Assembly (NCBI GenBank): GCA_049860595.1
Contig: CP187551.1
Length of the DNA: 64,000 nt
Strand: one strand, 5' to 3'
Origin: Methanocaldococcus sp. 16A
GTDB taxonomy: Archaea > AGJL01 > Methanococci > Methanococcales > Methanocaldococcaceae
Shown here: in pieces, positions 1,413-32,292 of the stretch
Layout: each line of letters begins with the position of its first letter
Numbering within the stretch: position 1 is the stretch's first letter
Program-made: the position numbers and the translations under genes
Notes under the pieces: generated by a model
What the model saw: the letters and a program-made list of their open reading frames with translations, nothing else
Told to the model about the DNA's origin: nothing
Databases searched by the model: none

Positions 1413-2470
1413 ACTCCTTTTCCATATTTTCCTCGAATTCCATCCCAAATTCCTTTATAGAAATATTTTAATAAATAAGGTTTTTTCTGTAAAAACACAA
1501 AATTAATTAATCTTCGAGAGTGTTTATAGGTTAAAAACCATATTAAAAACAACAAATACTTTACAAGATTATTATGTTTTTTTACATATAAAATTCTATT
1601 TCTATGTCCATAATAAATAGAAGTTGGAGAAAACTCACCGCCTGAGCTTATAGAAACTTTATGCCATAAAATAGATTTAGTAGCACAAACTAATTTATAA
1701 CCTAAATTTTTACATCTAATGGATAAGTCAGTATCTTCATAATAGCAAAAATAATTCTCATCAAAACCATCCAATACTTTTAAAACATTATTTCGAATCA
1801 ACATTGAACATCCTGTAATATAACCGCATTCAACAATATCATTATATTTTTTATAATCTATTTTTTTAAAATAATAATGCCAAACCCTTCCAGTTTTTAA
1901 ATCAACTCCTCCCCCACCTAGTCCCCAAATCACATCACTTCTGCCATTATAATCATAATAATAAATCTTACTTCCAACTATCCCAATCTTTTCATCACTT
2001 TCAGCAACTTTAACCATTTCAATTAAAAAATTCTTATCTACAACAGTATCATTATTTAACAACAAAACATAATCAGGATTTAAAACATTTAATGCAAATT
2101 TAATGCCTATGTTATTACCTCCAGCAAAACCATAGTTATCTTTATTTTTTATTAGAATCATTCTTTTATTTGGTTCTAATGTTTCATATTTTTCTTTATC
2201 TAAAAATTTATTGGTTCTTGCTTCATCTTCCGAAAGTTCAAAAACTTTTATAGGTTTATTTTCTTTAGAATATTTAAAGAACTTTGAATTTACTTCTATT
2301 TTTCCATTACAATATTCTTTTATCTTTTCAATAGATTCATCCTTAGAATCATTATCTACAACTATTACATCATAATTTGGATAATTAATTCTGTAAAGGG
2401 ATTCTAAACATTCTATTGTATCTCTCCAACCATTCCAATTTAAAATTATTATTGATACTCTTGGAAACAT
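1409..2470 (-). CDS. GT2 family glycosyltransferase (WbbL/rhamnosyltransferase-like)
   Basis: IIILNWNG, VVDNDS, NYGFAGGNN, LLNNDT, GFDENYFCYYEDTDL. Confidence 0.9.
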   Translation of the reverse strand: MFPRVSIIILNWNGWRDTIECLESLYRINYPNYDVIVVDNDSKDESIEKIKEYCNGKIEVNSKFFKYSKENKPIKVFELSEDEARTNKFLDKEKYETLEPNKRMILIKNKDNYGFAGGNNIGIKFALNVLNPDYVLLLNNDTVVDKNFLIEMVKVAESDEKIGIVGSKIYYYDYNGRSDVIWGLGGGGVDLKTGRVWHYYFKKIDYKKYNDIVECGYITGCSMLIRNNVLKVLDGFDENYFCYYEDTDLSIRCKNLGYKLVCATKSILWHKVSISSGGEFSPTSIYYGHRNRILYVKKHNNLVKYLLFLIWFLTYKHSRRLINFVFLQKKPYLLKYFYKGIWDGIRGKYGKGV

Positions 2471-2812: not shown

Positions 2813-4159
2813 ATGAGAATATTACAAGTTGTTCATGGATTTCCTCCAAAGCAGAGGGCCGGAACAGAAATGTATACTTATTATCTATCAAAAGAATTAG
2901 CTAAAAAACATGAAGTTCATGTTTTTTATCCCACGCGGGATAAAGGTAAAAAATCAATTACAATACATTCCTTTGAAAGAGAAAAATTACACTTACATGA
3001 GTTAGTTATACCTAATGATTTTATATGGAAGATAAAGAGGTTCTGGGATTTGTTATTAATTAAAAATACTTATATAAACAAAAGTGTTGAAGGGATATTC
3101 AGAACCCTTTTGAGAAGGATAAAGCCAGACATAATCCATTTTGAGCATTTAATTGGGTTATCTACCACTTTAATAAATATTGCTAAAGAAGAATTTAACA
3201 TTCCAATTGTCCTTACACTACATGATTATTGGTTTATGTGCCCAAATATTCAATTAATTACATATGAACATATAATCTGTAAAGAGCCAGATCCAAGCAA
3301 ATGTCGTGAGTGTTGGGTTAAAAATCGGGCAAAAGATATTTCCAAAGCATTAGGAGTGTATTATATTCCAAAATCTTTAACAGAAAGACCATTAGAGATA
3401 GTTTTGAAGATATTCAATCATCCAGAAAAATTTGAAAAAAGAAACAAATATCTCAAGTCTTTGCTTTTAAAGGCGGATAAAATTATATCCCCTTCTAAAT
3501 TTTTGAGAGAAACATTCATTAGATATGGAATCTCAGAAGATAAGATAATATACTCTGAAAATGGATATAACTTAGAAGTTTTTAAGGGATTTAAGAAAAA
3601 AAAGAATAGTACTAATAAAATTATTTTTGGGTTTGCTGGAAATGTTATTCCAATTAAAGGGGTTCATGTTTTAGTGGATGCATTTTTAAAAGTGCCAGAA
3701 GAAAAAGCAGAACTGAGAATATATGGATATTACAATCCTAAGTCGGAATATGTGAAAAAAATTTTAACAAAAGCAAAAAGAAAGAAAAACATAAAATTTA
3801 TGGGAAGGTTTGAAGATATAAAAGAGCCATATTCGGGGATTGATGTTCTTATATTTCCCTCTATATGGTACGAAAACTGTCCTTTAGTTTTGGCAGAAGC
3901 ACGAGCTACTAAAACACCAGTTATAGCATCTAACTTAGGAGCAATTCCAGAATTTGTAAAACATGGAAAAACAGGTTTATTATTCGAACCAAATAATCCA
4001 GAAGATTTGTATGAAAAAATTATGCAAATTATTCAAAATCCTAAACTGATAGAAAAGTTTAAAGCAAACATAAAACTACCAAGAAGTATTGAAGAGCAAG
4101 CCAAAGAAATCGAAGAGATATATAAATCACTTATGAGGTGTTATCATGAAAACCGATAA
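2813..4159 (+). CDS. GT4 family glycosyltransferase with Cys-rich insert
   Basis: MRILQVVHGFPP..AGTE, LTLHDYWFMCP, PSIWYENCPLVLAEA; GGTGAT RBS. Confidence 0.92.
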   Translation: MRILQVVHGFPPKQRAGTEMYTYYLSKELAKKHEVHVFYPTRDKGKKSITIHSFEREKLHLHELVIPNDFIWKIKRFWDLLLIKNTYINKSVEGIFRTLLRRIKPDIIHFEHLIGLSTTLINIAKEEFNIPIVLTLHDYWFMCPNIQLITYEHIICKEPDPSKCRECWVKNRAKDISKALGVYYIPKSLTERPLEIVLKIFNHPEKFEKRNKYLKSLLLKADKIISPSKFLRETFIRYGISEDKIIYSENGYNLEVFKGFKKKKNSTNKIIFGFAGNVIPIKGVHVLVDAFLKVPEEKAELRIYGYYNPKSEYVKKILTKAKRKKNIKFMGRFEDIKEPYSGIDVLIFPSIWYENCPLVLAEARATKTPVIASNLGAIPEFVKHGKTGLLFEPNNPEDLYEKIMQIIQNPKLIEKFKANIKLPRSIEEQAKEIEEIYKSLMRCYHENR

Positions 4160-5087
4160 ATTTCAAACTGCTCTTAAGAAATATTTTGATAAATATAAAA
4201 CTCATCCCAGATATGAATTTTGGATTAAAGATCACCTATGGAAAGTAGGCATTCCCAATTCTGAGGTGCTAGATTATATTTATAATATTGTAGAATATAT
4301 TCATAAAAACTACCTATCCTCTTTTAAAAAAAATGAGATTAAAATCTTAGATCTTGGTTGTGGTATGGGTGAGTTTGCAGTATTCTTATCCTTATCAGGC
4401 TATTATGTTGTTGGAGTTGACATGGATAAAGAACAACTAAAAATAGCAAAAATTCTTAAAGAAGAAAATAAAGCTAAAGTTGAGTTTATTAATACTGATG
4501 CAACGAAATTACCATTCAAAGATGAAGAATTCGATATTATTATCTGTTTTGATGTTTTTGAGCATGTAGATGATTTGCAACCCATATGTAACGAAATGTG
4601 GAGGATATTAAAGAACGATGGAGTAATTTTTCTCAGATTTCCAAACAAATTAAAAGGCTATGAAGATCATGTCGGTCTACCTTTACTTCCTTTACTCCCG
4701 GAAAGAATCTTTCAATTTGTTTTTAGAAAAATAATAAAAAGTCGAAAATATTACCAAGAGGGTCTATATGTCTATTATAGAAGATTCTCAGAAGTTTATC
4801 AAGTATTAACGGCTGCAAATTTTCACATTTCTCAGCTACCCGAACATTTAATGTTTCCTCGATTACCTAGAATGTACAAACGATTGATTCGAAATAACGT
4901 TCAATACATACCAATAATCTCACCATATTTTCATTTTTTGCTTACAAAGAAACCTGTTGATAGTTCATTACAAAATCTAGATATAAGGAAAATAAAATTA
5001 TTCGAGTTCATATGGTGGTTCTTCGTTTTGATCATTTCCATTGCTAGTGTTTTTAAAAATACAATATCCAAAAAGAACAGGAGGTAA
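4146..5087 (+). CDS. Class I SAM-dependent methyltransferase (possible glycan O-methyltransferase)
   Basis: ILDLGCGMG, DATKLPF, FDIIICFDVFEHV; overlaps the GT4 gene. Confidence 0.85.
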   Translation: MKTDKFQTALKKYFDKYKTHPRYEFWIKDHLWKVGIPNSEVLDYIYNIVEYIHKNYLSSFKKNEIKILDLGCGMGEFAVFLSLSGYYVVGVDMDKEQLKIAKILKEENKAKVEFINTDATKLPFKDEEFDIIICFDVFEHVDDLQPICNEMWRILKNDGVIFLRFPNKLKGYEDHVGLPLLPLLPERIFQFVFRKIIKSRKYYQEGLYVYYRRFSEVYQVLTAANFHISQLPEHLMFPRLPRMYKRLIRNNVQYIPIISPYFHFLLTKKPVDSSLQNLDIRKIKLFEFIWWFFVLIISIASVFKNTISKKNRR

Positions 5088-5091
5088 CAAA

Positions 5092-6681
5092 ATGTCACCA
5101 AAAGTTCTAGTTATTGGTTTAGATGGAGCAACATGGAATCTAATCAAACCTTGGACTGATAAAGGAGAATTACCAACATTTAAAAAACTAATGGAAAATG
5201 GAGTTTGGGGTAATTTGGAATCCACGATTCCGCCTTGGACTATTCCTGCCTGGGAATCCATGAGTACTGGAAAGAATCCAAAAAAACTGGGTTTTGCTAC
5301 ATTTATGGTGAAAGACGGCTACAAATTCGTCCCTCATAACTTCAAGCACAAACGACAAAAAATGATATGGGATATTCTATCTGACTCCAATTATAATGTT
5401 GTTGTAGCTAATTTGCCGAATATTTACGTAGCTCAAAAAATTAATGGATGCATGATTGCTGGATGGCTTTGCTTGGATAAGAATCGTATTACGTATCCTC
5501 CTAATCTAATCAATGAACTAAATGAGCATTGCAATGGATATGAAATTGATATTTTTGATGTTGATTTTGAGAATGGTCGAATAACTGATGGTCCTGGAGA
5601 TAATGAATACTTAAAACGCTGTGAAGAGTTATTAGAAAAACATTTTTTTGCCTTTACATACCTACTGAAGAAATATATGTGGGATTTTGGATTTATTGTG
5701 TTTGTAACCCCTGACAGAATTCAACATAAATACTGGAATAGTAATATTTTACTTGAACATTACAAGAAGATAGATTCAAAATTGAAAGAATTACTTGACA
5801 AAATAAATGATGAAACTATCATTTTTTTAGTTTCAGATCATGGATTCGGATGTGTTAAATACATACTTAACATAAATGAATTCCTTATAAAAGAGGGTTA
5901 TCTAAAATTAAAAAAACCACCAAAACAAATGTTATCTAGGCTATTCACCATTATAAAGGAGAGTACACTGCTGCCTATTGCAAAAGCTCTTGTTAATCGA
6001 CTGCCTCACACTATAGCCAAATACTTGAAGAAAAAAGCATCACCTATAAGCTTTGAAAAAATGGATATAGATTGGAGTTACACAAAAGCCTTTGCATATG
6101 GTGTTTTTGGAGATGTATATCTAAATGTTAAAGGAAGAGAACCAAATGGTATTGTAGATCCTGATGAATATGATAAAGTACGAGAAGAAATTATTGAAAA
6201 GATAAAAAACATAGAATATAAAGGGAAAAAACTAAACATACAAATTTTTAAAAAAGAAGAAGTTTATCCAAATGCTACTTTATGGGATAATCTTCCAGAT
6301 TTAGTAATAGTACCTACTGATGATGGCATACATGCAATAAATCCGAACATTGGAAGCGGTAAGATAATAACAGAATCAAACGGATCTAATGGAGATCACA
6401 GACTTTATGGTATCTTCCTTGCTTATGGCCCAGGAATTAAGAAGGGTTACAAAATAGAAAATGTTAAAGTTTATGATATAGCGCCAACAATCCTCCATAT
6501 CTTCAGCTTACCAATCCCAAATGATATGGACGGAAAAGTGTTAACGAATATATTTGAAAAAGACTCGGAATTTGCAAAGAAAGAGATTAAATATGTGGAT
6601 ACAAGTTATTACGAGAAAAAACAAGAAGATGAAAAACTCAAAAAAGCTATTAAAAACCTAAGGCTCAAAGGAAAAATCTAA
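5092..6681 (+). CDS. Alkaline phosphatase superfamily / type I phosphodiesterase-nucleotide pyrophosphatase family protein
   Basis: IGLDGA, STIPPWTIPAW (Thr nucleophile), DRIQH, SDHG, GDH. Start moved to ATG 5092, behind GGAGGT. Confidence 0.85.
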   Translation: MSPKVLVIGLDGATWNLIKPWTDKGELPTFKKLMENGVWGNLESTIPPWTIPAWESMSTGKNPKKLGFATFMVKDGYKFVPHNFKHKRQKMIWDILSDSNYNVVVANLPNIYVAQKINGCMIAGWLCLDKNRITYPPNLINELNEHCNGYEIDIFDVDFENGRITDGPGDNEYLKRCEELLEKHFFAFTYLLKKYMWDFGFIVFVTPDRIQHKYWNSNILLEHYKKIDSKLKELLDKINDETIIFLVSDHGFGCVKYILNINEFLIKEGYLKLKKPPKQMLSRLFTIIKESTLLPIAKALVNRLPHTIAKYLKKKASPISFEKMDIDWSYTKAFAYGVFGDVYLNVKGREPNGIVDPDEYDKVREEIIEKIKNIEYKGKKLNIQIFKKEEVYPNATLWDNLPDLVIVPTDDGIHAINPNIGSGKIITESNGSNGDHRLYGIFLAYGPGIKKGYKIENVKVYDIAPTILHIFSLPIPNDMDGKVLTNIFEKDSEFAKKEIKYVDTSYYEKKQEDEKLKKAIKNLRLKGKI

Positions 6682-8087
6682 AACTTCTTGTCAAGTATTG
6701 TTCTCAATTTCTTCCTTTCATCTTCTTTAAGCATTTTATTTAACTTGTCCACGAATATTGATGTAACCTCCTTATCTGTTATTGGATGCTGTTCAAAAGG
6801 GTCTTTCTTGAGGTCAAAGAGCCACTGGACGCCATCATCTGGAGCGTAGAGGAGCTTGTACCTCCCCAGAATTAAGACCTTCTTCTCATACCCATAACCA
6901 GCCGCCTCGGAGAGCAAAGGCCTTTTCTTGTTATTAACCTCAAAAAGATTCTGTCCATCAAAAGTTAAATTATGAGAAACACCCAGCAGATCCAAAATTG
7001 TAGGCATAACATCAACGGAACTAACCCTGTTTTCAGTAAAATCACCTTTTTTCTTAATAGCTCCATCAAATAAAACCGGCACCTCAATAATCTCATTGAA
7101 AACATTATGCCCATGCCCCACACCGTAATAACCTCTAGGATCATAGAAATTATCAGCCTCAAGTTTTGCATGCTCCCAGAACTCCTCGCCATGATCCGAT
7201 GTAATCAAGAGAATTGTAGAATTCAACAAGCCAGAGTCTTCAAGAAATGCATAAAAACTCTCTATAGCGTAATCAACGTATCTAAGTGTATTGTTATAAA
7301 GCAACATTCTATTTCTTCTATATTTCTCAAATTCTTTTCCTTTTTGTTCTTCAGGCCTTCTGAAATCCCACCGCTCAATATTTGGAATATTCCCCACTTG
7401 TCCAAAGTAATTCCTAAACTTTTCTGGCGGTACTATGGGCTCATGAACATCTCCAAGGTGCAGATATACAAAGAAGGAGTTTTTTCTTTTTGATATCCAT
7501 TTTCTCAGGTCATTCAGTAGTTCTTCAGCGAGAGTATCTCCAAGATAGAACTTGGGGACAACCCTACTTTTCAAAGGGTAGCTTGCAACATCAATCGCTG
7601 TTCCAAAGTATATCTCATATCCAAGTGCAAAGAGTATTTCGGGCAGAGTCAGCACACTTTTCTTAATTGGCTTAAATGCTTTAAGAATATCTAAATTTTT
7701 TATCTTGCTGTGAATATAGGCGTTGTGGTTGTGGGGGTAAAGACCTGTTAAAATCGACGCTACTGAAGGATATGTCCATGGTGCAGCTGAAATTGCTCTA
7801 AACTTTGCCTTCAGAGAATCCATGAAGGGCGTTGTTTCTCTTTGATACCCAGTAAATGAGAGGTTGGAATAGCGGAGGCAGTCCACTGTTAGAATAATCA
7901 CATTCAAGTCGGGCTTATTTGAAGTGTCAATATACTCGTCAAAATTTATGTTTTTGATCCTCGAATAGAGATCCTTTTTAGCTTTTCTCCCTTGATACTG
8001 GTTGTAAACTCTAAGTGCAAGCCTTTTTGTGGTATCATTCCGTTTAACAATACTCTTGGCAATAGTGGTTATATACTTAAATACCAT
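6678..8087 (-). CDS. Sulfatase-like hydrolase/transferase (AlkP superfamily, Thr instead of formylglycine precursor)
   Basis: TVDCLR, APWTYPSVASILTG, DVHEP, SDHGEE, GHG, LFDLKKDPFE. Start at 8087, behind GGAGGG. Visibly GC-richer than the flanks. Confidence 0.85.
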   Translation of the reverse strand: MVFKYITTIAKSIVKRNDTTKRLALRVYNQYQGRKAKKDLYSRIKNINFDEYIDTSNKPDLNVIILTVDCLRYSNLSFTGYQRETTPFMDSLKAKFRAISAAPWTYPSVASILTGLYPHNHNAYIHSKIKNLDILKAFKPIKKSVLTLPEILFALGYEIYFGTAIDVASYPLKSRVVPKFYLGDTLAEELLNDLRKWISKRKNSFFVYLHLGDVHEPIVPPEKFRNYFGQVGNIPNIERWDFRRPEEQKGKEFEKYRRNRMLLYNNTLRYVDYAIESFYAFLEDSGLLNSTILLITSDHGEEFWEHAKLEADNFYDPRGYYGVGHGHNVFNEIIEVPVLFDGAIKKKGDFTENRVSSVDVMPTILDLLGVSHNLTFDGQNLFEVNNKKRPLLSEAAGYGYEKKVLILGRYKLLYAPDDGVQWLFDLKKDPFEQHPITDKEVTSIFVDKLNKMLKEDERKKLRTILDKKF

Positions 8088-8110
8088 AGCACTCCCTCCA
8101 TTTTTCCCTT

Positions 8111-9637
8111 TCAAACAAACTTCCTTAAAATTTTCTTTATTATCTTTAAATCAACCTCCAATTTCTTCTCTATCTCCAAAAACAGCTTAACGTCCTCTTT
8201 ATCAACACTTCTACTAAGCAAAACCAAGAAGAAGTAAACTCCCAAAAACACTGTAAGGACAGGAATTGCATACCATATGCTTGGTACTTTCAGGTGCAAG
8301 CTCTGAATTAGTCCCAATAGAACAAAACTTATTACCAAAGGCTTCACGTAATTCCAGCTGAAGGGATGAATTTTAGTCTCCTTATAGAGCTTTAGCGAGT
8401 TTAGAACATTTCCAACAAAGTAAGATATAGCGGTAGCTATTGCAGCTCCCTCCATACCATAAATCGGAATTAAGAAAGTATTTAGTATAACATTAAAGAC
8501 TGCAGAAACTAGACCTGATACCATAATAAATTTGCTTTTTCCGATCACAAGGAGACTCAGTCCGTTTAATCCTAAGAAAGTGTGAAACATAAAACCCATA
8601 GCCAAGATTTGAAGCGCTTTACATGCTTCCAAATACTTTTCTCCGAAGAAAAATCCAATTGTAGCCTCTGGGAAGAGAAACATTAAAATAAACAAAGGTA
8701 ATGTGACAAAAAATATCCACTTTGTTAATACTTGATAAACCCTACTCATTTCTTTAATTTTTCCCTGAGCATAGAGAGCTGTAGCTAAGGGAGGGTAGAT
8801 GAAACCAGCAGAATATAAAACTATAGGTAAAAGCTTTGCTAATGGAGCTGCAGCATTGTATAATCCAACAGCTTCTGAAGTTTTATAGTATCCAAGCATC
8901 AAAGTATCTGTCCATGTCATTATAAATCCAGCAATTCCTGTAAACATCAGAGGAATCGAAAATCTTATCAATTCTTTTCCTAATTTTAAATTGATAGAAT
9001 CAAGTTTAAACAATCCTCGTCTAAACACATTTATAACTAATGCAAAGAACGTAATAACTTGAGCTATTAAATATGCTACAAAAATGTAATAAAACTCTAC
9101 TTTCATAATAACTCCAATTCCTATAAAAGAAAACCATAGAAGTGGATACAATATATTCTGAAAATAAACTTTTTCCCTAACTCTTCCGAATCCTTGAGAA
9201 ATTGATATAAAAGTACCTGTTAAAGCCAAAAAAGGAAGTGCAAGCGATATTAACTTCAAAGCATAAGTCAATCGTTCTTCATTGAATATCTGAGCAAGAT
9301 AAGCAGACCCAAAAATCAGAAATGCTGTAAAAGCTAAACTTGTTAATAATATAATTATTAAAGCAGTTGATATTAAAGATCCTATTTTTGAAGGTTCTTT
9401 TTCCTTATAAAAAGCAATTTCCCTTGGAAGAGAATTTGGAAATCCAAGCGTAGCAATTATAATAGCTATATTGAGAATTGTCAAGGCTAAGTTATAAACT
9501 CCATATTCAGCAGTAGAAAAATACCTTGCTATAATTACCACGCTTAAAAACCCAAAGAACATTGAAATGATTGTCCCCACAAATACTATTCCAGCTCCTC
9601 TCGCAATTCCATGCAGAACTTTATTAACTTCACTCAA
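8111..9637 (-). CDS. Wzx/MATE-like oligosaccharide flippase
   Basis: IARYFSTAEYGVYNLA, WTDTLMLGYY, LIPIYGMEGAAIATA; multi-pass membrane protein. Confidence 0.9.
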   Translation of the reverse strand: MSEVNKVLHGIARGAGIVFVGTIISMFFGFLSVVIIARYFSTAEYGVYNLALTILNIAIIIATLGFPNSLPREIAFYKEKEPSKIGSLISTALIIILLTSLAFTAFLIFGSAYLAQIFNEERLTYALKLISLALPFLALTGTFISISQGFGRVREKVYFQNILYPLLWFSFIGIGVIMKVEFYYIFVAYLIAQVITFFALVINVFRRGLFKLDSINLKLGKELIRFSIPLMFTGIAGFIMTWTDTLMLGYYKTSEAVGLYNAAAPLAKLLPIVLYSAGFIYPPLATALYAQGKIKEMSRVYQVLTKWIFFVTLPLFILMFLFPEATIGFFFGEKYLEACKALQILAMGFMFHTFLGLNGLSLLVIGKSKFIMVSGLVSAVFNVILNTFLIPIYGMEGAAIATAISYFVGNVLNSLKLYKETKIHPFSWNYVKPLVISFVLLGLIQSLHLKVPSIWYAIPVLTVFLGVYFFLVLLSRSVDKEDVKLFLEIEKKLEVDLKIIKKILRKFV

Positions 9638-9701
9638 TATTTCCCAACCTCTTAATAATTTTAACTAAAAATTAAGTATCCAATTTATAAATACTTTATC
9701 C

Positions 9702-10081
9702 GAGTGTGTCTAAAATCGAGTAATATTTATATATTAATATAATAACGAAATAAAAAAATATGGTAGCAAAAAGATGGGATACGAGAATATATGATATAAA
9801 CGAGATATTGGAGGTTTTTGATGACGTTATGGGGAGTATAAAATTACCTAAGGAATTAAAGCCAAGAAAATATTGTATCGAACTACTACTTAAAGTTTCT
9901 GTTATTAAGGAGTTTTTAGGAGTATCGTTAAGAGCTATGGAAATCTTGACAGAGGTGTTTTTTGGAGCTAAAATTGACCATTCAGTAATCTATTACTGGG
10001 AAAAGAAACTAAATAACTATATTATATCGATAGTAAATCAAATTCTTAGGAAACTATGGAGTTTCTATCTTAGACATACTC
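9702..10081 (+). mobile_element. Internally deleted IS element (MITE-like, 380 bp)
   Basis: Left end GAGTGTGTCTAAAATCGA vs reverse complement of right end GAGTATGTCTAAGATAGA (15/18). Flanked by a TCC direct repeat (9699-9701, 10082-10084). Confidence 0.85.
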
Positions 10082-10113
10082 TCCGTAAAAAATATATACC
10101 TAATGCAATTTAA
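9760..10113 (+). pseudogene. Truncated transposase, N-terminal HTH region only (IS5/IS4-like)
   Basis: GVSLRAME...IDHSVIYYWEKKL HTH-like segment, no DDE domain. The ORF runs through the right TIR. Confidence 0.7.
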
Positions 10114-10146
10114 TTAAATATCATTAAATATAATTAAGGTGAAAAG

Positions 10147-10374
10147 ATGTCAGATGAGAGGAAATATACTACTGTTTCAATACCAATCCAACTTTATGAA
10201 AAGATTAAAAAAAGAATTGAAGGTACTGGATTTACATCTGTCTCAGATTATGTAACCTATGTTTTGAGGGAAGTTTTAGCAAGTTTAGAAGAGGAAGAGA
10301 AAGAAGAAGTATTTAGTGAGGAGGAAGAGGAGAAGGTTAAAGAGAGATTAAGAGCATTAGGATATTTAGACTAA
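10147..10374 (+). CDS. Ribbon-helix-helix (CopG-type) protein with acidic C-terminal ERLRALGYLD tail
   Basis: TTVSIP..LYEKIK...GFTSVSDYV RHH pattern; AAGGTGA RBS. Confidence 0.85.
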   Translation: MSDERKYTTVSIPIQLYEKIKKRIEGTGFTSVSDYVTYVLREVLASLEEEEKEEVFSEEEEEKVKERLRALGYLD

Positions 10375-10377
10375 TAG

Positions 10378-10401
10378 ATTTTTTGCATATTTTTTATTTT
10401 T
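10378..10401 (+). terminator. Putative oligo-T terminator between the RHH gene and sat
   Basis: Several T runs directly after the stop codon. Confidence 0.35.
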
Positions 10402-10437
10402 AATTAAACTTAATTAAATATCATTATGGTGATAATA

Positions 10438-11586
10438 ATGGTCTCAAAGCCACATGGAGGAAAATTAGTTAGAAAATTATTATCTGAGAAAAGTAAAGAG
10501 AGAATTTTAGAAGAAAAAGATGAATATCAAAAAATAAGTATTAGGGAAGGAACTGCAATAGACATTGAAAATATTGCACATGGAATATACTCCCCACTTG
10601 AAGGGTTTTTAAGAGAAGAAGAATTTCAACATGTTTTAGATAATATGAGATTGCCTGATGATTTACCATGGAGCATTCCTATAGTTTTAGATGTAAAAGA
10701 AGAGGATTTAAAATTTGATGTTGGAGATGAAATCCTTTTATATCATGGAGATATTCCAGTTGCAGTTATGAATGTTGATGATATCTACAAATATGATAAG
10801 AAAGAATTTGCTCAAAAAGTCTTTAAAACAACAGATATAGATCATCCTGGAGTAGCAAAAGTTTATAATATGAATGAATATCTTGTTGGTGGAGAGATTA
10901 GACTTTTAAATGAATTGCCTAACCCCTTTGAAAAATACACCTTAAGACCAATAGAAACAAGAGTGTTATTTAAAGAGAGAAAATTTGAAACTATTGTAGC
11001 ATTTCAAACGAGGAATGTTCCTCATTTAGGGCATGAATATTTACAAAAATCTGCATTAACCTTTGTTGATGGATTGTTTATAAACCCAGTTTTAGGAAAG
11101 AAAAAGAAAGGCGATTATAAAGATGAAGTTATTTTGAAAGCATATGAAACATTATTTAAGCACTACTATCCAAAGGATTCAGCAGTTTTGGCAACAGTTA
11201 GATATGAGATGAGATATGCCGGGCCAAGAGAAGCAATACACCACGCAATAATGAGGAAGAATTTTGGATGCACACACTTTATTGTTGGAAGAGACCATGC
11301 AGGGGTTGGAAATTATTACGGTCCTTACGAAGCACAAGAAATATTTAAAAACTTCCCTGATTTGGGAATAACGCCAATGTTCTTTAAAGAATTCTTCTAT
11401 TGTAAGAAATGTAAAGGAATAGTAAATGAAAGAATCTGTCCTCACCCAATGGAAGATAGAGAATATTTCAGTGGAACTAAAATCAGAAATATGATTGTTA
11501 ATGGTGAAATACCTCCAGAATACTTCATGAGAAAAGAGGTTTATGAAACAATAATGAGTTTTGAAAACCCATTTGTGGATGGTTAA
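10438..11586 (+). CDS. sat: Sulfate adenylyltransferase (ATP sulfurylase)
   Basis: PHGGKL, AFQTRNVPHLGHE, RYAGPREA, VGRDHAG, Zn site CKKC..CPH. Start at 10438, behind GGTGAT. Confidence 0.97.
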   Translation: MVSKPHGGKLVRKLLSEKSKERILEEKDEYQKISIREGTAIDIENIAHGIYSPLEGFLREEEFQHVLDNMRLPDDLPWSIPIVLDVKEEDLKFDVGDEILLYHGDIPVAVMNVDDIYKYDKKEFAQKVFKTTDIDHPGVAKVYNMNEYLVGGEIRLLNELPNPFEKYTLRPIETRVLFKERKFETIVAFQTRNVPHLGHEYLQKSALTFVDGLFINPVLGKKKKGDYKDEVILKAYETLFKHYYPKDSAVLATVRYEMRYAGPREAIHHAIMRKNFGCTHFIVGRDHAGVGNYYGPYEAQEIFKNFPDLGITPMFFKEFFYCKKCKGIVNERICPHPMEDREYFSGTKIRNMIVNGEIPPEYFMRKEVYETIMSFENPFVDG

Positions 11587-11587
11587 T

Positions 11588-12520
11588 ATGCTAATAATTC
11601 ACCATTGGGATACTGATGGAATAACTTCAGCAGCTTTAACAGTTAAAGCTTTAAATTTAGAGGATTTTATAAATGTAATTCCACCAATTGGTGAGTTTAG
11701 ATTTGATGAAAGAATATGGAAAAAAATTGAACAGGCAGAAAAAGTTTATGTTTTGGATTTAAATCTCCCGCAAGAAGTAGAAAATATTAACAAGGAAACA
11801 ATATTCATCGATCATCACATACAAAAAAGGATTGAAAATCCAAATGTTAAGCAAATAAATCCAGTTTTAGAAGGTAAAAATTTTCCATCTGCATCTTTTG
11901 TGGTTTCAGATTATTTCTCATACTGGAACTGTTTATCTGCACTTGGAGCTGTGGGGGATATTGGAGAGAAGGCATTTAACATTTCAAAAGTTAAAAAACT
12001 TCTGAATTTGGAAGAAATTGATAGGGAAGATGCATTAAAATTGGTTCAATTGATTGATTCAAATTATATTGTAATGGAAAGAGATGAGGTTGAAAATGCC
12101 GTGAAAGTTATTTTAAACTTAGAGCCAAAAGAACTTTTAGAGTATGAAAAATGGAATAAGAATCTTGAAAAAATCAATGATGCAATAGAAGATGCAATTT
12201 CAAATATAATAGTTAAAAATGGAATCGCATTTATTAAATTTGAGAGTAAATTTAACATTATCTCAAAAGTTGCAAGGAAAGTCGTTTGGAAAATGGGTTA
12301 TGATGGAGCAGTAGTTGTAAATGAAGATTTTAACGGAAAAGCACAGATATATTTCAGAATTTCATCTAATTTAACTGACAAAATAAAGATGGCTGAACTT
12401 ATCCAAACATTAAAAGACAAAAATTACAACGCTGGTGGGAAGAAGGATGTCTTAGGATGTATTTTGGAAAAAAGTGATGTTGATGATGTTTTGAAAATTA
12501 TTAATACATATTTAAGGTGA
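11588..12520 (+). CDS. DHH-family phosphoesterase, likely PAP (3'-phosphoadenosine 5'-phosphate) phosphatase
   Basis: HHWDTDG, VLD, IDHH, AGG; lies between sat and cysC. Start at ATG 11588. Confidence 0.8.
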   Translation: MLIIHHWDTDGITSAALTVKALNLEDFINVIPPIGEFRFDERIWKKIEQAEKVYVLDLNLPQEVENINKETIFIDHHIQKRIENPNVKQINPVLEGKNFPSASFVVSDYFSYWNCLSALGAVGDIGEKAFNISKVKKLLNLEEIDREDALKLVQLIDSNYIVMERDEVENAVKVILNLEPKELLEYEKWNKNLEKINDAIEDAISNIIVKNGIAFIKFESKFNIISKVARKVVWKMGYDGAVVVNEDFNGKAQIYFRISSNLTDKIKMAELIQTLKDKNYNAGGKKDVLGCILEKSDVDDVLKIINTYLR

Positions 12521-12524
12521 TAGA

Positions 12525-13916
12525 ATGGAGAATGTAAAAAAAGCATTTGTTATTGGCTTAGATTCTGCACCTCCAGAACTTTTATTTGATAAGTTATTAG
12601 ATAAATTGCCAAACATAAAAAAACTTTTAGAGAAATCAATATATGGCCCTATGAAAAGTTGTATTCCTGCTATAACCATTCCTGCCTGGATGGTGATGGC
12701 TACTGGTAAAACTCCAGGAGAATTAGGGCTTTATGGATTTAGGCATAGAAAAAAAGGAACTTATAATGATATTTGGATTGCTCACAGTTTGATGGTTAAA
12801 GAAAAAGCAGTATGGGATTATTTAGGGGAAGTAGGGAAAAAATCAATCTTAGTTGGCGTTCCTCCAAGTTATCCTCCAAAGCCTATTAAAGGACATTTGA
12901 TTTCTTGCTTTATAACCCCTGATGCATCAGTTAATTACACTTACCCAAAATCTCTCAAAAGTGAAATAGAAAACCTCGTTGGAGAGTATATATTTGACGT
13001 GGTTTTTAGGAAGGACAATAGAGATGAGGTAAAAGAATTACTTTGGGAGATGACTGAGAAGAGGTTTGAAGTTATAAGATACCTAATTCAAGAAAAAGAT
13101 TGGGACTATTTCCAATTTGTTGAAATTGGTTTGGATAGAGTCCATCATGCATTCTGGAAGTATTTTGATGAAAATCATCATTTATATCCAGGGGATGACA
13201 ATCCCTACAAAAATGTTATTCCGGATTATTACAAACTTCTCGATAAGGAAATTGGAAAAACTTTAAAATTATTAGATTTGGATGAAACCGCTGTTATTAT
13301 CGTTTCAGACCATGGTATAAAGGCGATGAAAGGGGCTTTTGCAATAAACCAGTGGTTGATTGAGGAAGGGTTATTAAAGATTAAAAATCCAGAGATTTTA
13401 GAATCTGGAAAACAGGTGAGATTTGAAGATTTGGATGTGGATTGGAAGAATACAATAGCATGGGCTTGGGGAGGTTATTACGCAAGAATCTTCCTCAATG
13501 TTGAGGGAAGAGAACCAAATGGTATAATAAAACCAGAAGATTACCATAAAGTTAGAGATGAAGTTGCTGAAATTATTAGAAGCATTAGGGGGCCAAATGG
13601 AGAGAGATGGGATACTAAGGTGTTCTATCCAGAGGATATATATCCAGAAACAAATGGAGATAAGCCAGATATGATGGTTTATTTAGACAATTTGTGTTGG
13701 AGGTCTGCTGGAACTTTGGGTTATGATAGCCCATATCTTTTAGAGAATGATACAGGGCCTGATGATGCGGTTCATTCTGAATATGGGGTATTTTCTATTT
13801 ATTTACCAGGAATGGAGGAAAGTAAGCAAATTACCTCAACTATTTATGACTTTGCTCCTACGGTTTTAAAGCTCTTTGGGATAGAAAAAAATCTTAGGGG
13901 GAGAAGTATAGTATGA
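12525..13916 (+). CDS. Alkaline phosphatase superfamily / nucleotide pyrophosphatase-like protein within the PAPS operon
   Basis: IGLDSA, PAITIPAW (Thr), DRVHH, SDHG, GPDDAVH. Confidence 0.85.
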   Translation: MENVKKAFVIGLDSAPPELLFDKLLDKLPNIKKLLEKSIYGPMKSCIPAITIPAWMVMATGKTPGELGLYGFRHRKKGTYNDIWIAHSLMVKEKAVWDYLGEVGKKSILVGVPPSYPPKPIKGHLISCFITPDASVNYTYPKSLKSEIENLVGEYIFDVVFRKDNRDEVKELLWEMTEKRFEVIRYLIQEKDWDYFQFVEIGLDRVHHAFWKYFDENHHLYPGDDNPYKNVIPDYYKLLDKEIGKTLKLLDLDETAVIIVSDHGIKAMKGAFAINQWLIEEGLLKIKNPEILESGKQVRFEDLDVDWKNTIAWAWGGYYARIFLNVEGREPNGIIKPEDYHKVRDEVAEIIRSIRGPNGERWDTKVFYPEDIYPETNGDKPDMMVYLDNLCWRSAGTLGYDSPYLLENDTGPDDAVHSEYGVFSIYLPGMEESKQITSTIYDFAPTVLKLFGIEKNLRGRSIV

Positions 13917-14452
13917 AGCAGGAAAAATCTTATATGGGATTTACAATCTGGCTCACAGGTCCTAGTGGTGCTGGAAAAACCACATTAGCTAATGCTTTAA
14001 AGAAAAAACTTAAAGAAATGGGTTACAAAGTTGAGATCTTAGATGGAGATGAAATAAGAAATTCCCTATATCCAAATTTGGGGTTTAGTAAAGAGGCAAG
14101 AGAGATGCATAATAAAGTAGTTATTCACATGGCTAAATTGTTATCAAGAAATGGAGTAATTGCAATAGTCTCTCTAATTTCTCCCTACAAATCTGTTAGG
14201 GAGTATGCGAGAAAAGAGATTGGGAGATTTATGGAGGTTTATGTTTATGCTCCTTTAGAGGAAAGAATTAAAAGAGACCCAAAAGGACTTTATGCTAAGG
14301 CATTGAAAGGAGAAATAAAAGGATTAACTGGCTATGATGGAGTTTATGAAGAGCCAGATAATCCAGAAGTTAAAGTTGACACTTCCAAAATGAGTGTTGA
14401 TGAGGAAGTTGAAATAGTAATCAAAAAGGCAAAGGAATTAAATTATCTTTAA
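13913..14452 (+). CDS. cysC: Adenylylsulfate (APS) kinase
   Basis: IWLTGPSGAGKTT, LDGDEIR, RDPKGLY, TGYDGVYEEP. Confidence 0.96.
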   Translation: MKQEKSYMGFTIWLTGPSGAGKTTLANALKKKLKEMGYKVEILDGDEIRNSLYPNLGFSKEAREMHNKVVIHMAKLLSRNGVIAIVSLISPYKSVREYARKEIGRFMEVYVYAPLEERIKRDPKGLYAKALKGEIKGLTGYDGVYEEPDNPEVKVDTSKMSVDEEVEIVIKKAKELNYL

Positions 14453-14462
14453 AGTGAGCCCT

Positions 14463-15212
14463 ATGGAATTCATATTTATAATTCTTGGGTTTGTTGTTGG
14501 GTTTCTTGTGGGTTTAACTGGAATTGGGGGAGGCGTTTTAATGACTCCTTTATTAATATTTTTGGGAGTGGAACCTCTTATAGCAGTTGGGACTGATTTA
14601 CTGTATGCTGCAATAACCAAGATTGTAGGGGCTATTTTACACAATAAAAAAGGGAATATAAATATTAACATTGCTCTAAAATTATTCTTAGGGAGTTTAC
14701 CAGCTATAATAGTTGGTTCTATAGTTTTAAGGTTGGTTGATAGAGTGGAGATAAACAATTTTTTAACAATAATACTTGGTGTAATTTTAATAATCACTTC
14801 TATTATAAATTTGAAAGGACGATTTGTAAAAAAAATATGCTTTAGTTCATCTGTTTTAGTGTTCTTTGGATTTTTAGTAGGTTTGATAGTCCAATTTACA
14901 TCAGTTGGTAGTGGTGTTTTAGTAACTCTTGCATTAACGAATTTCACAAAACTTTTACCAAGATCTGTTGTTGGAACAAGTATTTTCTATGGCCTCTTAT
15001 TAACTTCGCTCAGTACTTTGAGCCATATAAGTTTGGGAAATGTTGATTACAGTTTAGCTTTATCGCTAATACTTGGAACCATTCCTGGAGTTTATGTTGG
15101 GACCTATGTGAATTCTAACATCCCACAGGACAAACTTAGGAAATTTATTAATTTGATAATTTTATTTATGGGAATTTATATTTTAGAATGTAACCTATTA
15201 AAATTTGTTTAA
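14463..15212 (+). CDS. TauE/SafE (TSUP) sulfur-compound transporter
   Basis: GLTGIGGG, AVGTDL, SVGSG, VVGTS; two-repeat membrane protein. ATG 14463 or GTG 14454. Confidence 0.88.
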   Translation: MEFIFIILGFVVGFLVGLTGIGGGVLMTPLLIFLGVEPLIAVGTDLLYAAITKIVGAILHNKKGNININIALKLFLGSLPAIIVGSIVLRLVDRVEINNFLTIILGVILIITSIINLKGRFVKKICFSSSVLVFFGFLVGLIVQFTSVGSGVLVTLALTNFTKLLPRSVVGTSIFYGLLLTSLSTLSHISLGNVDYSLALSLILGTIPGVYVGTYVNSNIPQDKLRKFINLIILFMGIYILECNLLKFV

Positions 15213-16382: not shown

Positions 16383-16396
16383 TTTTAACACCCTAA

Positions 16397-17494: not shown

Positions 17495-17531
17495 TAGATT
17501 CACCATTTAATAACCTTCAAAACTTATTTTC

Positions 17532-17627
17532 AATAGGACTTCGCAGTTTATATATTTATTAATGAAAAAAATGATGCCAAAGGCATCAAATATTCCTTCT
17601 AATATTTATTCCTGCGAAAGTCTTATT
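17532..17627. repeat. MJRE-like palindromic repeat, copy 1 (overlaps the rmlD 3' end)
   Basis: AATAGGACTTCGCAG ... CTGCGAAAGTCTTATT termini; central hairpin TGATGCC-AAA-GGCATCA. Confidence 0.88.
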
Positions 17628-18497
17628 CAATTCATTTAATGCTTCATCAACATTTTTTAATTTAATATTCAACAATTTTTCAACTTTCTCACTATTTAAA
17701 GATGTATCTTTTGGTCTCTTAGCTTTCCATCCCAATTCAGAACTTTTAATTGGTTTTATTAGGTCTTTGTTATAACCAAAAACCTCAGCAACTTTCAAAG
17801 CAAACTCATACCTACTAACTTTTTCTCCCCCACCGAAGTGCAATAATCCATTAATATCATTTTCATAAATTTTGATAATTCCCTCAACTAACTCATTAAC
17901 ATAAGTAGGAGTGTTCCATTGGTCAATTACTGCTTTTATAACCTCATTATTTTTCAATTTTTCTAAAACCCACATAAAGAAATTAACTTTAATTGGACTT
18001 ATACAGTAAGGAACAGATATTCTAACAATAGATATTGCATCATAATCTAATTCATTTAATAATCTCTCCCCTTCTGCTTTTGTATATCCATAATAATTTA
18101 TGGGATTGATTATATCCTCTTCTGTGTAATTTCCTTTTTCTCCATCAAAAACATAATCGGTAGAGATGTGGCATAAATTACAACCAATTTCTTTACAAAT
18201 CTCTCCAATATATTTAGCTCCTAAGGCATTTATTTTATAAGCTAAATCCCTCTCAATTTCACACAAATCAACATTTGTCATTGCTGCAGTATTTATAACA
18301 AAATCAGGATTTATTTTTCTTATTGTTTCTTTGATTTTATTTTCAATGGTTATGTCAACAAAATATTTTTTTACATCTTTAAAAAATCCTTTATCACTTC
18401 TTGTTATAATATAAATTTCATAATCATCCAATTCCAAATATTTCTTAACTAACTCATAGCCAATCATCCCTAAGCCAATAACGGCTACTTTTTCCAT
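17586..18497 (-). CDS. rfbD: dTDP-4-dehydrorhamnose reductase
   Basis: AAMTNVDLCE, ISTDYVFDG, YGYTK, RPKDTSL. Confidence 0.93.
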   Translation of the reverse strand: MEKVAVIGLGMIGYELVKKYLELDDYEIYIITRSDKGFFKDVKKYFVDITIENKIKETIRKINPDFVINTAAMTNVDLCEIERDLAYKINALGAKYIGEICKEIGCNLCHISTDYVFDGEKGNYTEEDIINPINYYGYTKAEGERLLNELDYDAISIVRISVPYCISPIKVNFFMWVLEKLKNNEVIKAVIDQWNTPTYVNELVEGIIKIYENDINGLLHFGGGEKVSRYEFALKVAEVFGYNKDLIKPIKSSELGWKAKRPKDTSLNSEKVEKLLNIKLKNVDEALNELNKTFAGINIRRNI

Positions 18498-18501
18498 AAA
18501 A

Positions 18502-19497
18502 TCACCATTTTAACTTCCAAGGTGTTGGATGTAAAACCTTCTCATTAATTAATGGCTTCCACCACCACTCGTTGTTAAGATACCATTCAACTGTCTCTCT
18601 CAACCCCTCTTTAAATTCAAACTTTGGTTTCCAACCAAGTTCTTTTATTTTAGTGGCATCTAAGCTGTATCTTATATCATGCCCTGGTCTGTCCTCAACA
18701 AATTCTATTAAATCATAAGATTTATTCATAATCTTTAATATTTCCTTAACAACATCTATATTCTTTTTCTCTTGATTTGAAGCTATATTATAAATTTCTC
18801 TCTTTTCCCCTTTCTCCAAAACTAACTCTATTCCTCTACAGTGGTCTAAAACATAAAGCCAATCTCTAACATTCTCTCCTTTTCCATATACTGGTATTTT
18901 TAAATCCATTTTAGCCCTAATTATTGTTTTAGGAATCAATTTTTCTGGAAATTGGTAAGGCCCATAATTGTTTGAACATCTTGTTATCTTTGCATTTAAG
19001 TTGTAGGTTCTTGCCCATCCTAAAACAAGCATATCTCCTCCTGCTTTACTTGCAGAGTAAGGAGATGATGGTAGTAATCTATCATTTTCTGTAAAAGATC
19101 CTTCTTCAATATCTCCATAAATCTCATCCGTACTGACCTGAACAAAATTTACTTCTGGATTATACTTCCTAATTGCCTCTAATATTGTATAAACTCCAAT
19201 AATATTACTCTCTATGAATGAATAAGGATTGGATATACTCCTATCCACATGAGTCTCTGCTGCGAAATTTACAACTGCATCAACCCCTTTAATAATCTCC
19301 GAGACTAACTCAAAGTCAGTAATATCTCCTTTAATAAATTTATGTCTATCCTCATCTATTCCCTTCAAATTCTCCAAGTTTGAACCATATCCAAGTTTAT
19401 CCAAATTTATAACTTCCCAATCTTTGTGTTTATCTAAAATATATCTTATAAAATTACTCCCTATAAAACCAGCCCCTCCTGTTACCAATATTCTCAT
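18502..19497 (-). CDS. rfbB: dTDP-glucose 4,6-dehydratase
   Basis: GGAGFIG, AAETHVDRS, STDEIYG, YSASK, DRPGHD. Confidence 0.96.
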   Translation of the reverse strand: MRILVTGGAGFIGSNFIRYILDKHKDWEVINLDKLGYGSNLENLKGIDEDRHKFIKGDITDFELVSEIIKGVDAVVNFAAETHVDRSISNPYSFIESNIIGVYTILEAIRKYNPEVNFVQVSTDEIYGDIEEGSFTENDRLLPSSPYSASKAGGDMLVLGWARTYNLNAKITRCSNNYGPYQFPEKLIPKTIIRAKMDLKIPVYGKGENVRDWLYVLDHCRGIELVLEKGEKREIYNIASNQEKKNIDVVKEILKIMNKSYDLIEFVEDRPGHDIRYSLDATKIKELGWKPKFEFKEGLRETVEWYLNNEWWWKPLINEKVLHPTPWKLKW

Positions 19498-19499
19498 TT

Positions 19500-20378: not shown

Positions 20379-20390
20379 ATTATCACCTTT

Positions 20391-25638: not shown

Positions 25639-25649
25639 ATCCTAACCTT

Positions 25650-29415: not shown

Positions 29416-29418
29416 ACC

Positions 29419-29800: not shown

Positions 29801-29848
29801 AATAAACCTAGTCTCTTTTAAAGTATGTTTTTGAGTAGTAATATAATT

Positions 29849-30982: not shown

Positions 30983-31052
30983 TATTCCACCAATTTATAT
31001 GATTGTATCTTAATTTATTTAATTTTCAATCGTGTTAATGTCATATTTATTT

Positions 31053-32195: not shown

Positions 32196-32292
32196 TTTCT
32201 CCCCACTCTTCATTAAACCATATAATATTCTACCTCTTAAGTATTCCCTAGTGTATTAAAGTGTTTAAGTCAACGTCTAACACACACGACTA

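Follow-up and report, generated by a model that had tools for sequence, protein, structure and literature searches.

Sulfate-activation genes in a surface-glycan island of Methanocaldococcus sp. 16A and their possible role in glycan sulfation

Gene content of the locus

We examined a 64,000-nt stretch of the Methanocaldococcus sp. 16A genome, hereafter the window (G000:C1:128001-192000), in which a cassette of sulfate-activation genes lies inside a surface-glycan island. The source genome, G000, is 1.62 Mb in size and 99.98% complete; G and L codes denote the genomes and loci compared. An original prediction had held that the cassette makes 3′-phosphoadenosine 5′-phosphosulfate (PAPS) for sulfation of the surface glycan, and that three proteins of the alkaline phosphatase (AlkP) fold, here called AlkP_A, Sulfatase_B and AlkP_C, act as sulfotransferases through a threonine at the nucleophile position. 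Genes were called from an open reading frame (ORF) listing together with Pfam searches, and every gene of the predicted map was found where it had been placed. The genes of the cassette and its surroundings are as follows (NPP, nucleotide pyrophosphatase/phosphodiesterase; SAM, S-adenosylmethionine; RHH, ribbon-helix-helix; APS, adenosine 5′-phosphosulfate; PAP, 3′-phosphoadenosine 5′-phosphate).

2813..4159, plus strand: GT4/GT1 glycosyltransferase, first gene of the glycosyltransferase-methyltransferase-AlkP_A run (PF00534, E 9.9e-34)
4146..5087, plus strand: SAM-dependent methyltransferase (PF08241, E 4.9e-26)
5092..6681, plus strand: AlkP_A, NPP-like AlkP-fold protein with the motif PWTIPAW (PF01663, E 1.2e-43)
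6678..8114, likely start 8087, minus strand: Sulfatase_B, protein of the S1-sulfatase fold with the motif PWTYPS, within WTYPSV (PF00884, E 2.4e-39)
8111..9637, minus strand: Wzx-type flippase, encoded upstream of Sulfatase_B (PF01943, E 2.3e-34)
10147..10374, plus strand: small CopG/RHH-like regulator ahead of sat, a 75-aa ORF (RHH_1, E 0.045, below the cut-off)
10426..11586, plus strand: ATP sulfurylase, Sat (PF01747, E 2.9e-92, plus PUA_2)
11579..12520 (start 11561 also given), plus strand: predicted DHH-family PAP phosphatase (phmmer match to PDB 8a8k)
12525..13916, plus strand: AlkP_C, the NPP-like AlkP protein of the cassette, with the motif AITIPAW (PF01663, E 2.5e-47)
13913..14452, plus strand: APS kinase, CysC (PF01583, E 2.4e-58)
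14454..15212, plus strand: TauE/SafE-family anion permease (PF01925, E 1.5e-46)
17586..20951, minus strand: rmlD, rmlB, rmlA and rmlC for dTDP-rhamnose synthesis (PF04321, PF16363, PF00483, PF00908)

The plus-strand cassette genes from Sat to TauE overlap or are separated by gaps of 1-4 nt, with a 4-nt overlap between the AlkP_C and CysC genes, and the GT4 gene (2813-4159) overlaps the methyltransferase gene (4146-5087) by 14 nt. For Sulfatase_B, the ATG at 8087 is the likely true start, as homologues begin there in the alignment. The claim of an RHH-led operon is borne out insofar as a copG/RHH-like ORF precedes sat, but the domain match of that ORF is weak. A 117-aa ORF between Wzx and this regulator (9760-10113), also considered for the RHH role, matched no Pfam or NCBIfam family, and the role falls to the 75-aa ORF. 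A scan for sigma-70 promoters and terminators did no better than on shuffled sequence, the bacterial consensus used being inapplicable to archaea.

The cassette as a known archaeal cluster

The order RHH-sat-DHH-AlkP_C-cysC-TauE is that of a published archaeal cluster, and we found it in six Methanococcales genomes and five Thermococci loci. Jin 2021 (PMC8268124) described a conserved archaeal cluster of copG, ATP sulfurylase (ATPS), a DHH-family pApase, a type I phosphodiesterase/nucleotide pyrophosphatase (PYCH_17550) and APS kinase (APSK), with TauE adjacent, and speculated that PYCH_17550 degrades pyrophosphate (PPi). The same paper noted that a sulfotransferase gene adjoins the cluster in other archaea, but that there is none in Pyrococcus yayanosii, for which the accessible text names no PAPS consumer. 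In Thermococcus onnurineus the corresponding genes are TON_1704 (APS kinase), TON_1705 (pyrophosphatase), TON_1706 (PAP phosphatase) and TON_1707 (ATP sulfurylase) (PMC4463584). Both TON_1704-1707 and the PYCH_17520-17560 cluster with TauE consist of the same genes in the same order as here. What differs is the setting: here and in several Methanococcales and Thermococci the cluster adjoins Wzx, glycosyltransferases and island AlkP-fold genes, whereas the papers on the TON and PYCH clusters, as far as their accessible text goes, term it an assimilation cluster, leave the PAPS user unnamed and make no mention of glycan genes.

The DHH-family protein is closely related to the PAP phosphatase of Methanothermococcus thermolithotrophicus, whose structure is solved (8a8k_A, E 1.9e-132 by phmmer, residues 9-318 aligned to 20-332), which agrees with the predicted recycling of PAP by this enzyme; we refer to it as PAPP. 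The assimilation locus of M. thermolithotrophicus (Jespersen 2023) has Sat, CysC and the DHH PAP phosphatase in common with G000, which differs in having no dissimilatory-type PAPS reductase, in its additional AlkP_C and in the glycan setting. TauE directly follows cysC in every Methanococcales cassette that was read through, and is presumably a sulfate importer, direction of transport included.

Transposase genes were seen at two cassettes. In G003 a sat-PAPP-cysC-TauE cassette lies between two DDE_Tnp_IS240 transposase ORFs (L047:6564-7208 and L047:10977-11522), an arrangement resembling a composite transposon, and in G014 a DDE transposase lies just past TauE (L059:12782-13780).

Search for PAPS-using enzymes elsewhere in the genome

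The predicted lack of a canonical sulfotransferase holds for the whole of G000, in which four Sulfotransfer families (PF00685, PF03567, PF13469 and PF17784) gave 0 matches at E <= 0.1. The companion claim, that there is no PAPS reductase, is right for the window, but the genome carries two strong PF01507 genes, which belong to the PAPS-reductase family. An AprA-type (AprAB-like) reductase was not found in G000, where the best TIGR02061 score was 23.4 bits against a cut-off of 641. Both PF01507 genes are present in all 40 Methanococcales genomes surveyed (a sample that includes G000), and sat in 11 of them; since they occur irrespective of sat, the PF01507 genes are not tied to PAPS supply. The 412-aa PF01507-family gene shows one apparent in-frame stop inside the match, which may lie at the gene start, in G006, G010, G011, G009, G032 and G036 (TAA three times, TGA once and TAG twice).

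Cassettes and sulfotransferases in Methanococcales

The 11 sat-positive Methanococcales are G000, G001, G003, G004, G006, G010, G011, G014, G016, G037 and G038. Orthologues of AlkP_C (92-95% identity) were found in six genomes (G000, G001, G010, G011, G014 and G038), always in the order sat-PAPP-AlkP_C-cysC-TauE; G009 has just a 38% paralogue. Canonical sulfotransferases also occur in six of the 40 genomes (G003, G004 with two copies, G006, G011, G014 and G016), all of them sat-positive. In G003, G006 and G016 the cassette lacks AlkP_C, and a Sulfotransfer_1/3 gene lies 1.1-1.3 kb away amid GT1, GT2 and GT9 glycosyltransferases, epimerases and UDP-sugar dehydrogenases. The canonical PAPS sulfotransferases (PF00685/PF13469) are of an unrelated fold, but they fill in these three genomes the cassette-side place equivalent to that of the AlkP-fold genes here. 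Because sister genomes thus carry a canonical sulfotransferase and glycosyltransferases beside the same cassette, PAPS is likely to be spent on the surface glycan, and we regard this element of the original prediction, PAPS feeding surface-glycan sulfation, as well supported.

In 7 of the 11 sat-positive genomes the cassette has clear glycan genes no more than 10 kb away; G010 and G011 have just a Wzx-like BLAST match. In G004 sat and PAPP stand at a contig start, beside a phosphate transporter. G037 has a pair of FAD_binding_2 (562 aa) and Fer4 (104 aa) genes after TauE and no surrounding glycan genes; it is the only cassette with this pair, a layout published for assimilation. Wzx orthologues of 55-76% identity adjoin the cassette in G001, G014 and G038, and the order in both G001 and G038 is cassette, Wzx, AlkP_A and GT2.

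Four genomes (G000, G001, G010 and G038) have sat but neither a canonical sulfotransferase nor an AprAB-like reductase, and all four carry AlkP_A-like or sulfatase-like genes. By contrast, none of the four genomes with a canonical sulfotransferase and no AlkP_C (G003, G004, G006 and G016) has an AlkP_A-like or PF00884 gene. A canonical sulfotransferase stands beside the cassette in some genomes, and a Thr-type sulfatase-like or NPP-like protein in others.

Co-occurrence in Thermococci and other archaea

We next consider 133 genomes of Thermococci, in which matches were assigned by hand either to AlkP_C orthologues (identity of 72% or more, with 370 or more residues matched) or to AlkP_A-like paralogues (identity of 41% or less, in frames of 390 aa or longer); the orthologue set excludes fragments as well as intermediates of 48-57% in G075, G077 and G078. 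Co-occurrence with cysC was as follows.

cysC background: 69 of 133 Thermococci genomes
AlkP_C orthologues: 62 genomes, 59 with cysC
Sulfatase_B family, all matches: 24 genomes, 22 with cysC
Sulfatase_B family, strong matches: 16 genomes, 15 with cysC
AlkP_A-like paralogues: 36 genomes, 33 with cysC
Canonical sulfotransferases (positive control): 15 genomes, 15 with cysC

One-sided Fisher tests for association with cysC gave 7.6e-6 for the sulfatase-like genes, 5.6e-9 for the AlkP_A-like genes and 2.3e-5 for the canonical sulfotransferases, values that are overstated because related genomes are not independent. A strong sulfatase-like gene lies within 30 kb of cysC in 10 of 16 genomes, as read by eye from the coordinates. 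In all five loci chosen because their coordinates showed proximity, Sat-PAPP-AlkP_C-CysC-TauE is accompanied by Wzx and a Sulfatase_B-like (G102, G124 and G090) or AlkP_A-like (G092 and G093) gene, and then by glycosyltransferases; the G124 locus has rmlABCD too. Within these arrangements, Sulfatase_B homologues come directly after TauE or beside Wzx in G102, G124 and G090, and AlkP_A homologues adjoin Wzx by the cassette in G092 and G093, as they do in G001 and G038. Co-occurrence of the AlkP-fold genes with sat and cysC, a check suggested along with the original prediction, is seen in the enrichment in Thermococci and in the four of four Methanococcales, but not without exceptions (G009, G011, G014 and the Thermococci lacking cysC, discussed below). 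None of the three candidate families was found in 19 of the 69 cysC-positive Thermococci.

Beyond these groups the association is sparser. A BLAST search of 43 AlkP_C loci from other archaea yielded a single locus with an AlkP_A-like gene, L071, and a single one with a sulfatase-like gene, L059; three sulfotransferase references matched nothing there. Pfam searches of 91 hand-picked representatives of 182 unlabelled AlkP_C neighbours likewise found no sulfotransferase or sulfatase. Taken together, these results indicate that many cassettes outside Methanococcales have no such gene within 10 kb. Two of the loci, L071 and L072, are from metagenome-assembled genomes of Nanobdellati archaea (small, DPANN-type) and contain Wzx, Sat, AlkP_C and CysC followed by rml genes, with no PAPP found in the locus; in L071 the rml genes are followed by GT2, the AlkP_A-like gene and glycosyltransferases.

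Sulfatase_B and AlkP_A as candidate sulfotransferases

The motifs PWTIPAW, AITIPAW and PWTYPS are present in the three translations, and the predicted threonine at the nucleophile position and the metal ligands proved invariant in the family alignments of Sulfatase_B, AlkP_C and AlkP_A (25, 24 and 6 sequences, respectively). The invariant residues of the Sulfatase_B family are D78, T114, H224, D307, H308 and H334, and those conserved in AlkP_A are D11, T50, D208, H212, D249, H250 and H436. AlkP_A has the same core residues as AlkP_C, without the K62/R73-H74-R75 cluster described below, and a conserved basic C-terminal tail. We take the conserved Asp and His residues of AlkP_C and AlkP_A to be the ligands of a two-metal site.

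None of the three AlkP-fold proteins has a hydrophobic segment, the maximum Kyte-Doolittle mean over 19-residue windows being 1.32, so that no signal peptide or transmembrane segment is apparent, as had been predicted, and Sulfatase_B and AlkP_A appear from their sequences to be cytoplasmic. The AlphaFold2 model of Sulfatase_B (pLDDT 88) has S1 carbohydrate sulfatases, including BT1596, as its top Foldseek neighbours (E about 1e-19 to 1e-20, TM 0.58-0.64). Formylglycine-dependent sulfatases carry a C/S-x-P-x-R motif whose first residue is converted to formylglycine. At this site Sulfatase_B reads W-T-Y-P-S-V, with Thr for Cys/Ser and Val for Arg, which excludes formylglycine chemistry. Sulfatase_B shares with S1 sulfatases the fold and metal ligands but neither the formylglycine motif nor a signal peptide, and we rejected its assignment as a true sulfatase given the Thr in place of Cys/Ser and the apparently cytoplasmic location. 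In LtaS and EptA the PF00884 domain is preceded by an N-terminal domain that spans the membrane several times, and no such domain is present in Sulfatase_B, whose NCBIfam matches to EptA and LtaS are weak and far below the cut-offs. We consider Sulfatase_B the first and AlkP_A the second candidate, both credible as non-canonical sulfotransferases.

Published precedents and what is added here

Sulfation of surface glycans by AlkP-fold proteins has precedents in haloarchaea. Agl7 of Haloferax volcanii (HVO_2046), annotated as an N-acetylgalactosamine-4-sulfatase, has rml genes and a flippase as neighbours in its cluster, and its deletion left the dolichol phosphate (DolP)-linked tetrasaccharide unsulfated (2013). 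In Halobacterium salinarum, VNG1056C (Agl30) and VNG1057C (Agl31) sulfate the N-glycan, and each of them, on expression in Hfx. volcanii, sulfates the pentasaccharide of that host (Zaretsky 2025, PMC11980604). The same work reports BT1596 as the best structural neighbour of Agl30, and Agl31 as soluble. Agl7, Agl30 and Agl31 are like Sulfatase_B in their AlkP-like core, in being sulfatase-like and in being encoded within a surface-glycan cluster, and BT1596 is a neighbour of both Agl30, as reported, and Sulfatase_B, by Foldseek. The system described here differs in the adjacent PAPS cassette and in AlkP_A, which is NPP-like rather than sulfatase-like. In methanogens, a "non-canonical sulfo-transferase" has been proposed for species other than M. 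thermolithotrophicus (Jespersen 2023).

The novelty claimed in the original prediction was consequently overstated, as both the cassette and AlkP-fold glycan sulfotransferases (Agl7 in 2013, Agl30 and Agl31 in 2025) had already been published. What is new here is the physical and phylogenetic link of the AlkP-fold candidates to PAPS synthesis, together with the invariant Thr. For the haloarchaeal sulfatase-like sulfotransferases this makes PAPS a probable donor and points to a candidate for the catalytic residue, neither of which is addressed in the accessible text of PMC11980604; "PAPS" has 0 occurrences in that paper. A 2024 review of polysaccharide sulfotransferases does not contain the term "alkaline phosphatase" and, as far as its accessible text goes, does not describe sulfatase-like sulfotransferases.

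AlkP_C

AlkP_C most likely is the counterpart of the published pyrophosphatase TON_1705 and an accessory phosphohydrolase, an assignment for which orthology was judged from gene order (between PAPP and APSK) and the PYCH_17550 annotation, not from alignment with TON_1705. Among named proteins, the nearest relatives of AlkP_C come from Methanocaldococcus sp.; it is 83% identical to a named P. yayanosii protein (P0020) and 70-95% identical to proteins from Thermococcus, Archaeoglobus, Geoglobus, Asgard archaea and Korarchaeum. In an alignment of 24 family members D13, T51, D204, H207, D262, H263 and H417 are invariant, as is a family-specific cluster of K62 with R73-H74-R75. The AlphaFold2 model (pLDDT 83) has ENPP1 and Xac NPP as its top folds. 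A phmmer search with AlkP_C against PDB sequences gave no match, and the family profile matched only the phosphonoacetate hydrolase 3szy (E 0.0018); NCBIfam has no family for AlkP_C, the RHH protein or TauE.

Of the 43 AlkP_C loci from other archaea, six with incomplete ORFs were dropped and 37 were analyzed. CysC was found in 33 of these, within 300 bp of AlkP_C in 30, and PAPP adjoins AlkP_C in 23; Sat was found in 18 of the 37, and in 12 of the 25 whose upstream sequence extends for 3 kb or more. Over the 37 loci AlkP_C averaged 73.7% identity to its G000 counterpart, Sat 73.8% and CysC 74.2%, and PAPP and TauE averaged 54.8% and 60.8%. AlkP_C thus evolves as slowly as Sat and CysC, which fits an invariant small substrate rather than the lineage-specific target of a glycan transferase. 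TON_1705 has a pH optimum of 9.5, a kcat of 2.1 s-1, a Km of 18.8 uM and a kcat/Km of 0.11e6 (Table 1 of PMC9653972). As its counterpart is published as a pyrophosphatase, AlkP_C is probably not a sulfotransferase.

Proposed role of the locus and alternative explanations

We propose that the stretch encodes a cytoplasmic glycan-sulfation module, in which PAPS is used on the surface glycan by Thr-type AlkP-fold proteins of the island and AlkP_C is accessory, and we assign this reading a probability of about 0.5. TauE would bring sulfate in, Sat and CysC would produce PAPS and the DHH enzyme would clear PAP, with AlkP_C, as a pyrophosphatase, pulling the Sat reaction. PAPS, the presumed donor, would serve to sulfate a lipid-linked glycan, the presumed acceptor, before Wzx flips it, and transfer would be carried out by Sulfatase_B or AlkP_A in the manner of Agl7, Agl30 and Agl31, possibly by way of a Thr-O-sulfate intermediate.

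A number of observations weigh against this proposal. Threonine nucleophiles are characteristic of phosphoryl and phospho-group transferases, and the weak NCBIfam matches of Sulfatase_B to EptA and LtaS point the same way. A canonical sulfotransferase and AlkP-fold genes occur together in G011 and G014, sat is missing from G009 (85% complete) despite its AlkP_A-like gene, and cysC is absent from 2 of the 24 sulfatase-like and 3 of the 36 AlkP_A-like Thermococci genomes, in addition to the inflation of the Fisher values noted above. The likeness to Agl7, Agl30 and Agl31 is one of fold, annotation and cluster setting, and a literature search by title and abstract returned no paper on a sulfated Methanocaldococcus glycan. 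Lastly, G000 has the genes of assimilation on paper, with an Fsr-sized 629-aa NIR_SIR protein outside the window in addition to the two PF01507 genes.

Two of these points can be developed into explanations of their own. Thr-nucleophile members of PF00884 and PF01663 include phosphoethanolamine and phosphoglycerol transferases and phosphodiesterases, and AlkP_A and Sulfatase_B could accordingly be phospho-group transferases or hydrolases, or, given the sulfatase fold of Sulfatase_B, sulfatases that trim sulfate, with an unrecognised enzyme carrying out the sulfation. Weak NCBIfam matches to EptA, LtaS and PafA would agree with this, but the LtaS/EptA-like membrane domain is missing, the C/S-x-P-x-R motif is lacking and both proteins are apparently cytoplasmic. 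Enrichment with and closeness to cysC in Thermococci, absence from the four Methanococcales that have a canonical sulfotransferase and no AlkP_C, and the haloarchaeal precedent for sulfotransfer by an AlkP-like fold also argue against it, and we consider it unlikely. The cassette might alternatively serve assimilatory sulfate reduction, the PF01507 proteins reducing PAPS or APS and Fsr reducing sulfite, in which case its position in a glycan island would be incidental. The gene content of G000 would allow this, and Methanocaldococcus jannaschii homologues reduce both APS and PAPS in vitro (Jespersen 2023). However, Methanocaldococcus infernus, whose genes on paper are the same, showed no growth on sulfate (Jespersen 2023), and the PF01507 genes are universal in the Methanococcales sample where sat is not. 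The AprAB-like reductase is absent from G000, the pair after TauE being confined to G037, which has no glycan genes there, and the cassette lies amid glycan genes in 7 of 11 genomes, with two more having the Wzx-like match alone. These points make assimilation quite improbable as the purpose of the cassette.

The role given to AlkP_C has to be weighed separately. Its pyrophosphatase function is weakened by the 13 of 25 loci in which it stays beside cysC and PAPP with no sat in at least 3 kb of upstream sequence, and is cast into doubt by the family II pyrophosphatase that G000 has of its own; in addition, the kcat of TON_1705 is ~10,000-fold below that of the main T. onnurineus pyrophosphatase, Ton1914 (PMC9653972). 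A pyrophosphatase-type accessory enzyme is the more likely assignment, but not a secure one, as these last two observations, together with a linkage of the gene to CysC and PAPP and not to Sat, would still allow a function connected with PAPS. AlkP_C might then be the missing PAPS-using enzyme of the cassette, taking up the sulfuryl group of PAPS, perhaps on Thr51, and handing it to a conserved acceptor, with pyrophosphatase activity as a side reaction. This would explain the PAPP-AlkP_C-CysC trio without sat in Archaeoglobi-type loci, the 19 of 69 cysC-positive Thermococci with no other candidate and the published failure to find a PAPS consumer in P. yayanosii, but we hold it to be very unlikely. 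The loci without sat, the 19 of 69 Thermococci and the low kcat of TON_1705, along with the place of AlkP_C between PAPP and CysC and a K62, R73, H74 and R75 cluster that could hold a polyanionic nucleotide, favour the reading of the original prediction, in which all three AlkP-fold proteins, AlkP_C included, are PAPS-dependent sulfotransferases acting through Thr-O-sulfate. Set against this are the published activity and micromolar Km of the orthologue, the conservation of AlkP_C at the level of Sat and CysC, its presence alongside canonical sulfotransferases in G011 and G014 and its absence from 5 of the 11 sat-positive Methanococcales cassettes. We therefore retain from that prediction, as leads, AlkP_A and Sulfatase_B, for which the flippase side, the co-occurrence with cysC and the haloarchaeal precedent speak, and set AlkP_C aside as a TON_1705 counterpart that evolves slowly; sulfotransfer by all three proteins seems to us a poor prospect.

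If the glycan-sulfation proposal is correct, many archaeal genes annotated as "sulfatase" or "alkaline phosphatase family" will need renaming, and sulfated envelopes are to be expected in hydrothermal-vent methanogens and Thermococcales. Surface-glycan sulfation would also be a testable answer to the question, raised by Jespersen 2023, of why methanogens that do not grow on sulfate have sulfate-activation genes, and a possible answer to the gap left by the PAPS consumer in P. yayanosii (Jin 2021).

Other features of the island

The island extends to both sides of the genes listed above, with the following features at its edges.

231..1412, plus strand: DUF2206 membrane protein, near island edge (PF09971, E 1.3e-59)
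1409..2470, minus strand: GT2 glycosyltransferase (PF00535, E 2.1e-19)
28414..32213, minus strand: three glycosyltransferases (GT2, GT4, GT4) at the far island edge (PF00535, PF00534)

A DUF2206-like gene is present in the G090 island too. Between the rml genes and the far glycosyltransferases, the region 23605-27197 encodes a protein of 677 aa that has a CWB2 cell-wall-binding domain and, after it, one of 489 aa whose Ig-like matches are weak, and these two are possible surface carriers of the island's glycan; a 58% relative is found upstream of the cassette in G010. The island contains or adjoins four MJ1010-like ATPase_2 paralogues (15327-17506, 34800-35909 and 37388-38437). Four such genes are also found in G038, between the rml genes and the cassette, and ATPase_2/DUF234 genes neighbour Thermococci cassettes too.

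The island is apparently mobile laterally among vent archaea. Sulfatase_B and a protein named from Pyrococcus abyssi share 91% identity. G038 belongs to the other Methanococcales family, and its cassette (L045, G038:C96) is 89-93% identical and its rmlA/rmlB 87-91% identical to those of G000; its housekeeping PF01507 genes are 53-67% identical only. An intein and a possible further insertion were encountered in two glycan genes of other genomes. The UDP-glucose dehydrogenase beside the G016 cassette (L050:6254-8953, 899 aa) contains an intein (Intein_splicing and LAGLIDADG_3), and the rmlB frame of G014 (L044:2927-5437) is 836 aa long with similarity to RmlB over 210 residues, which suggests another insertion.

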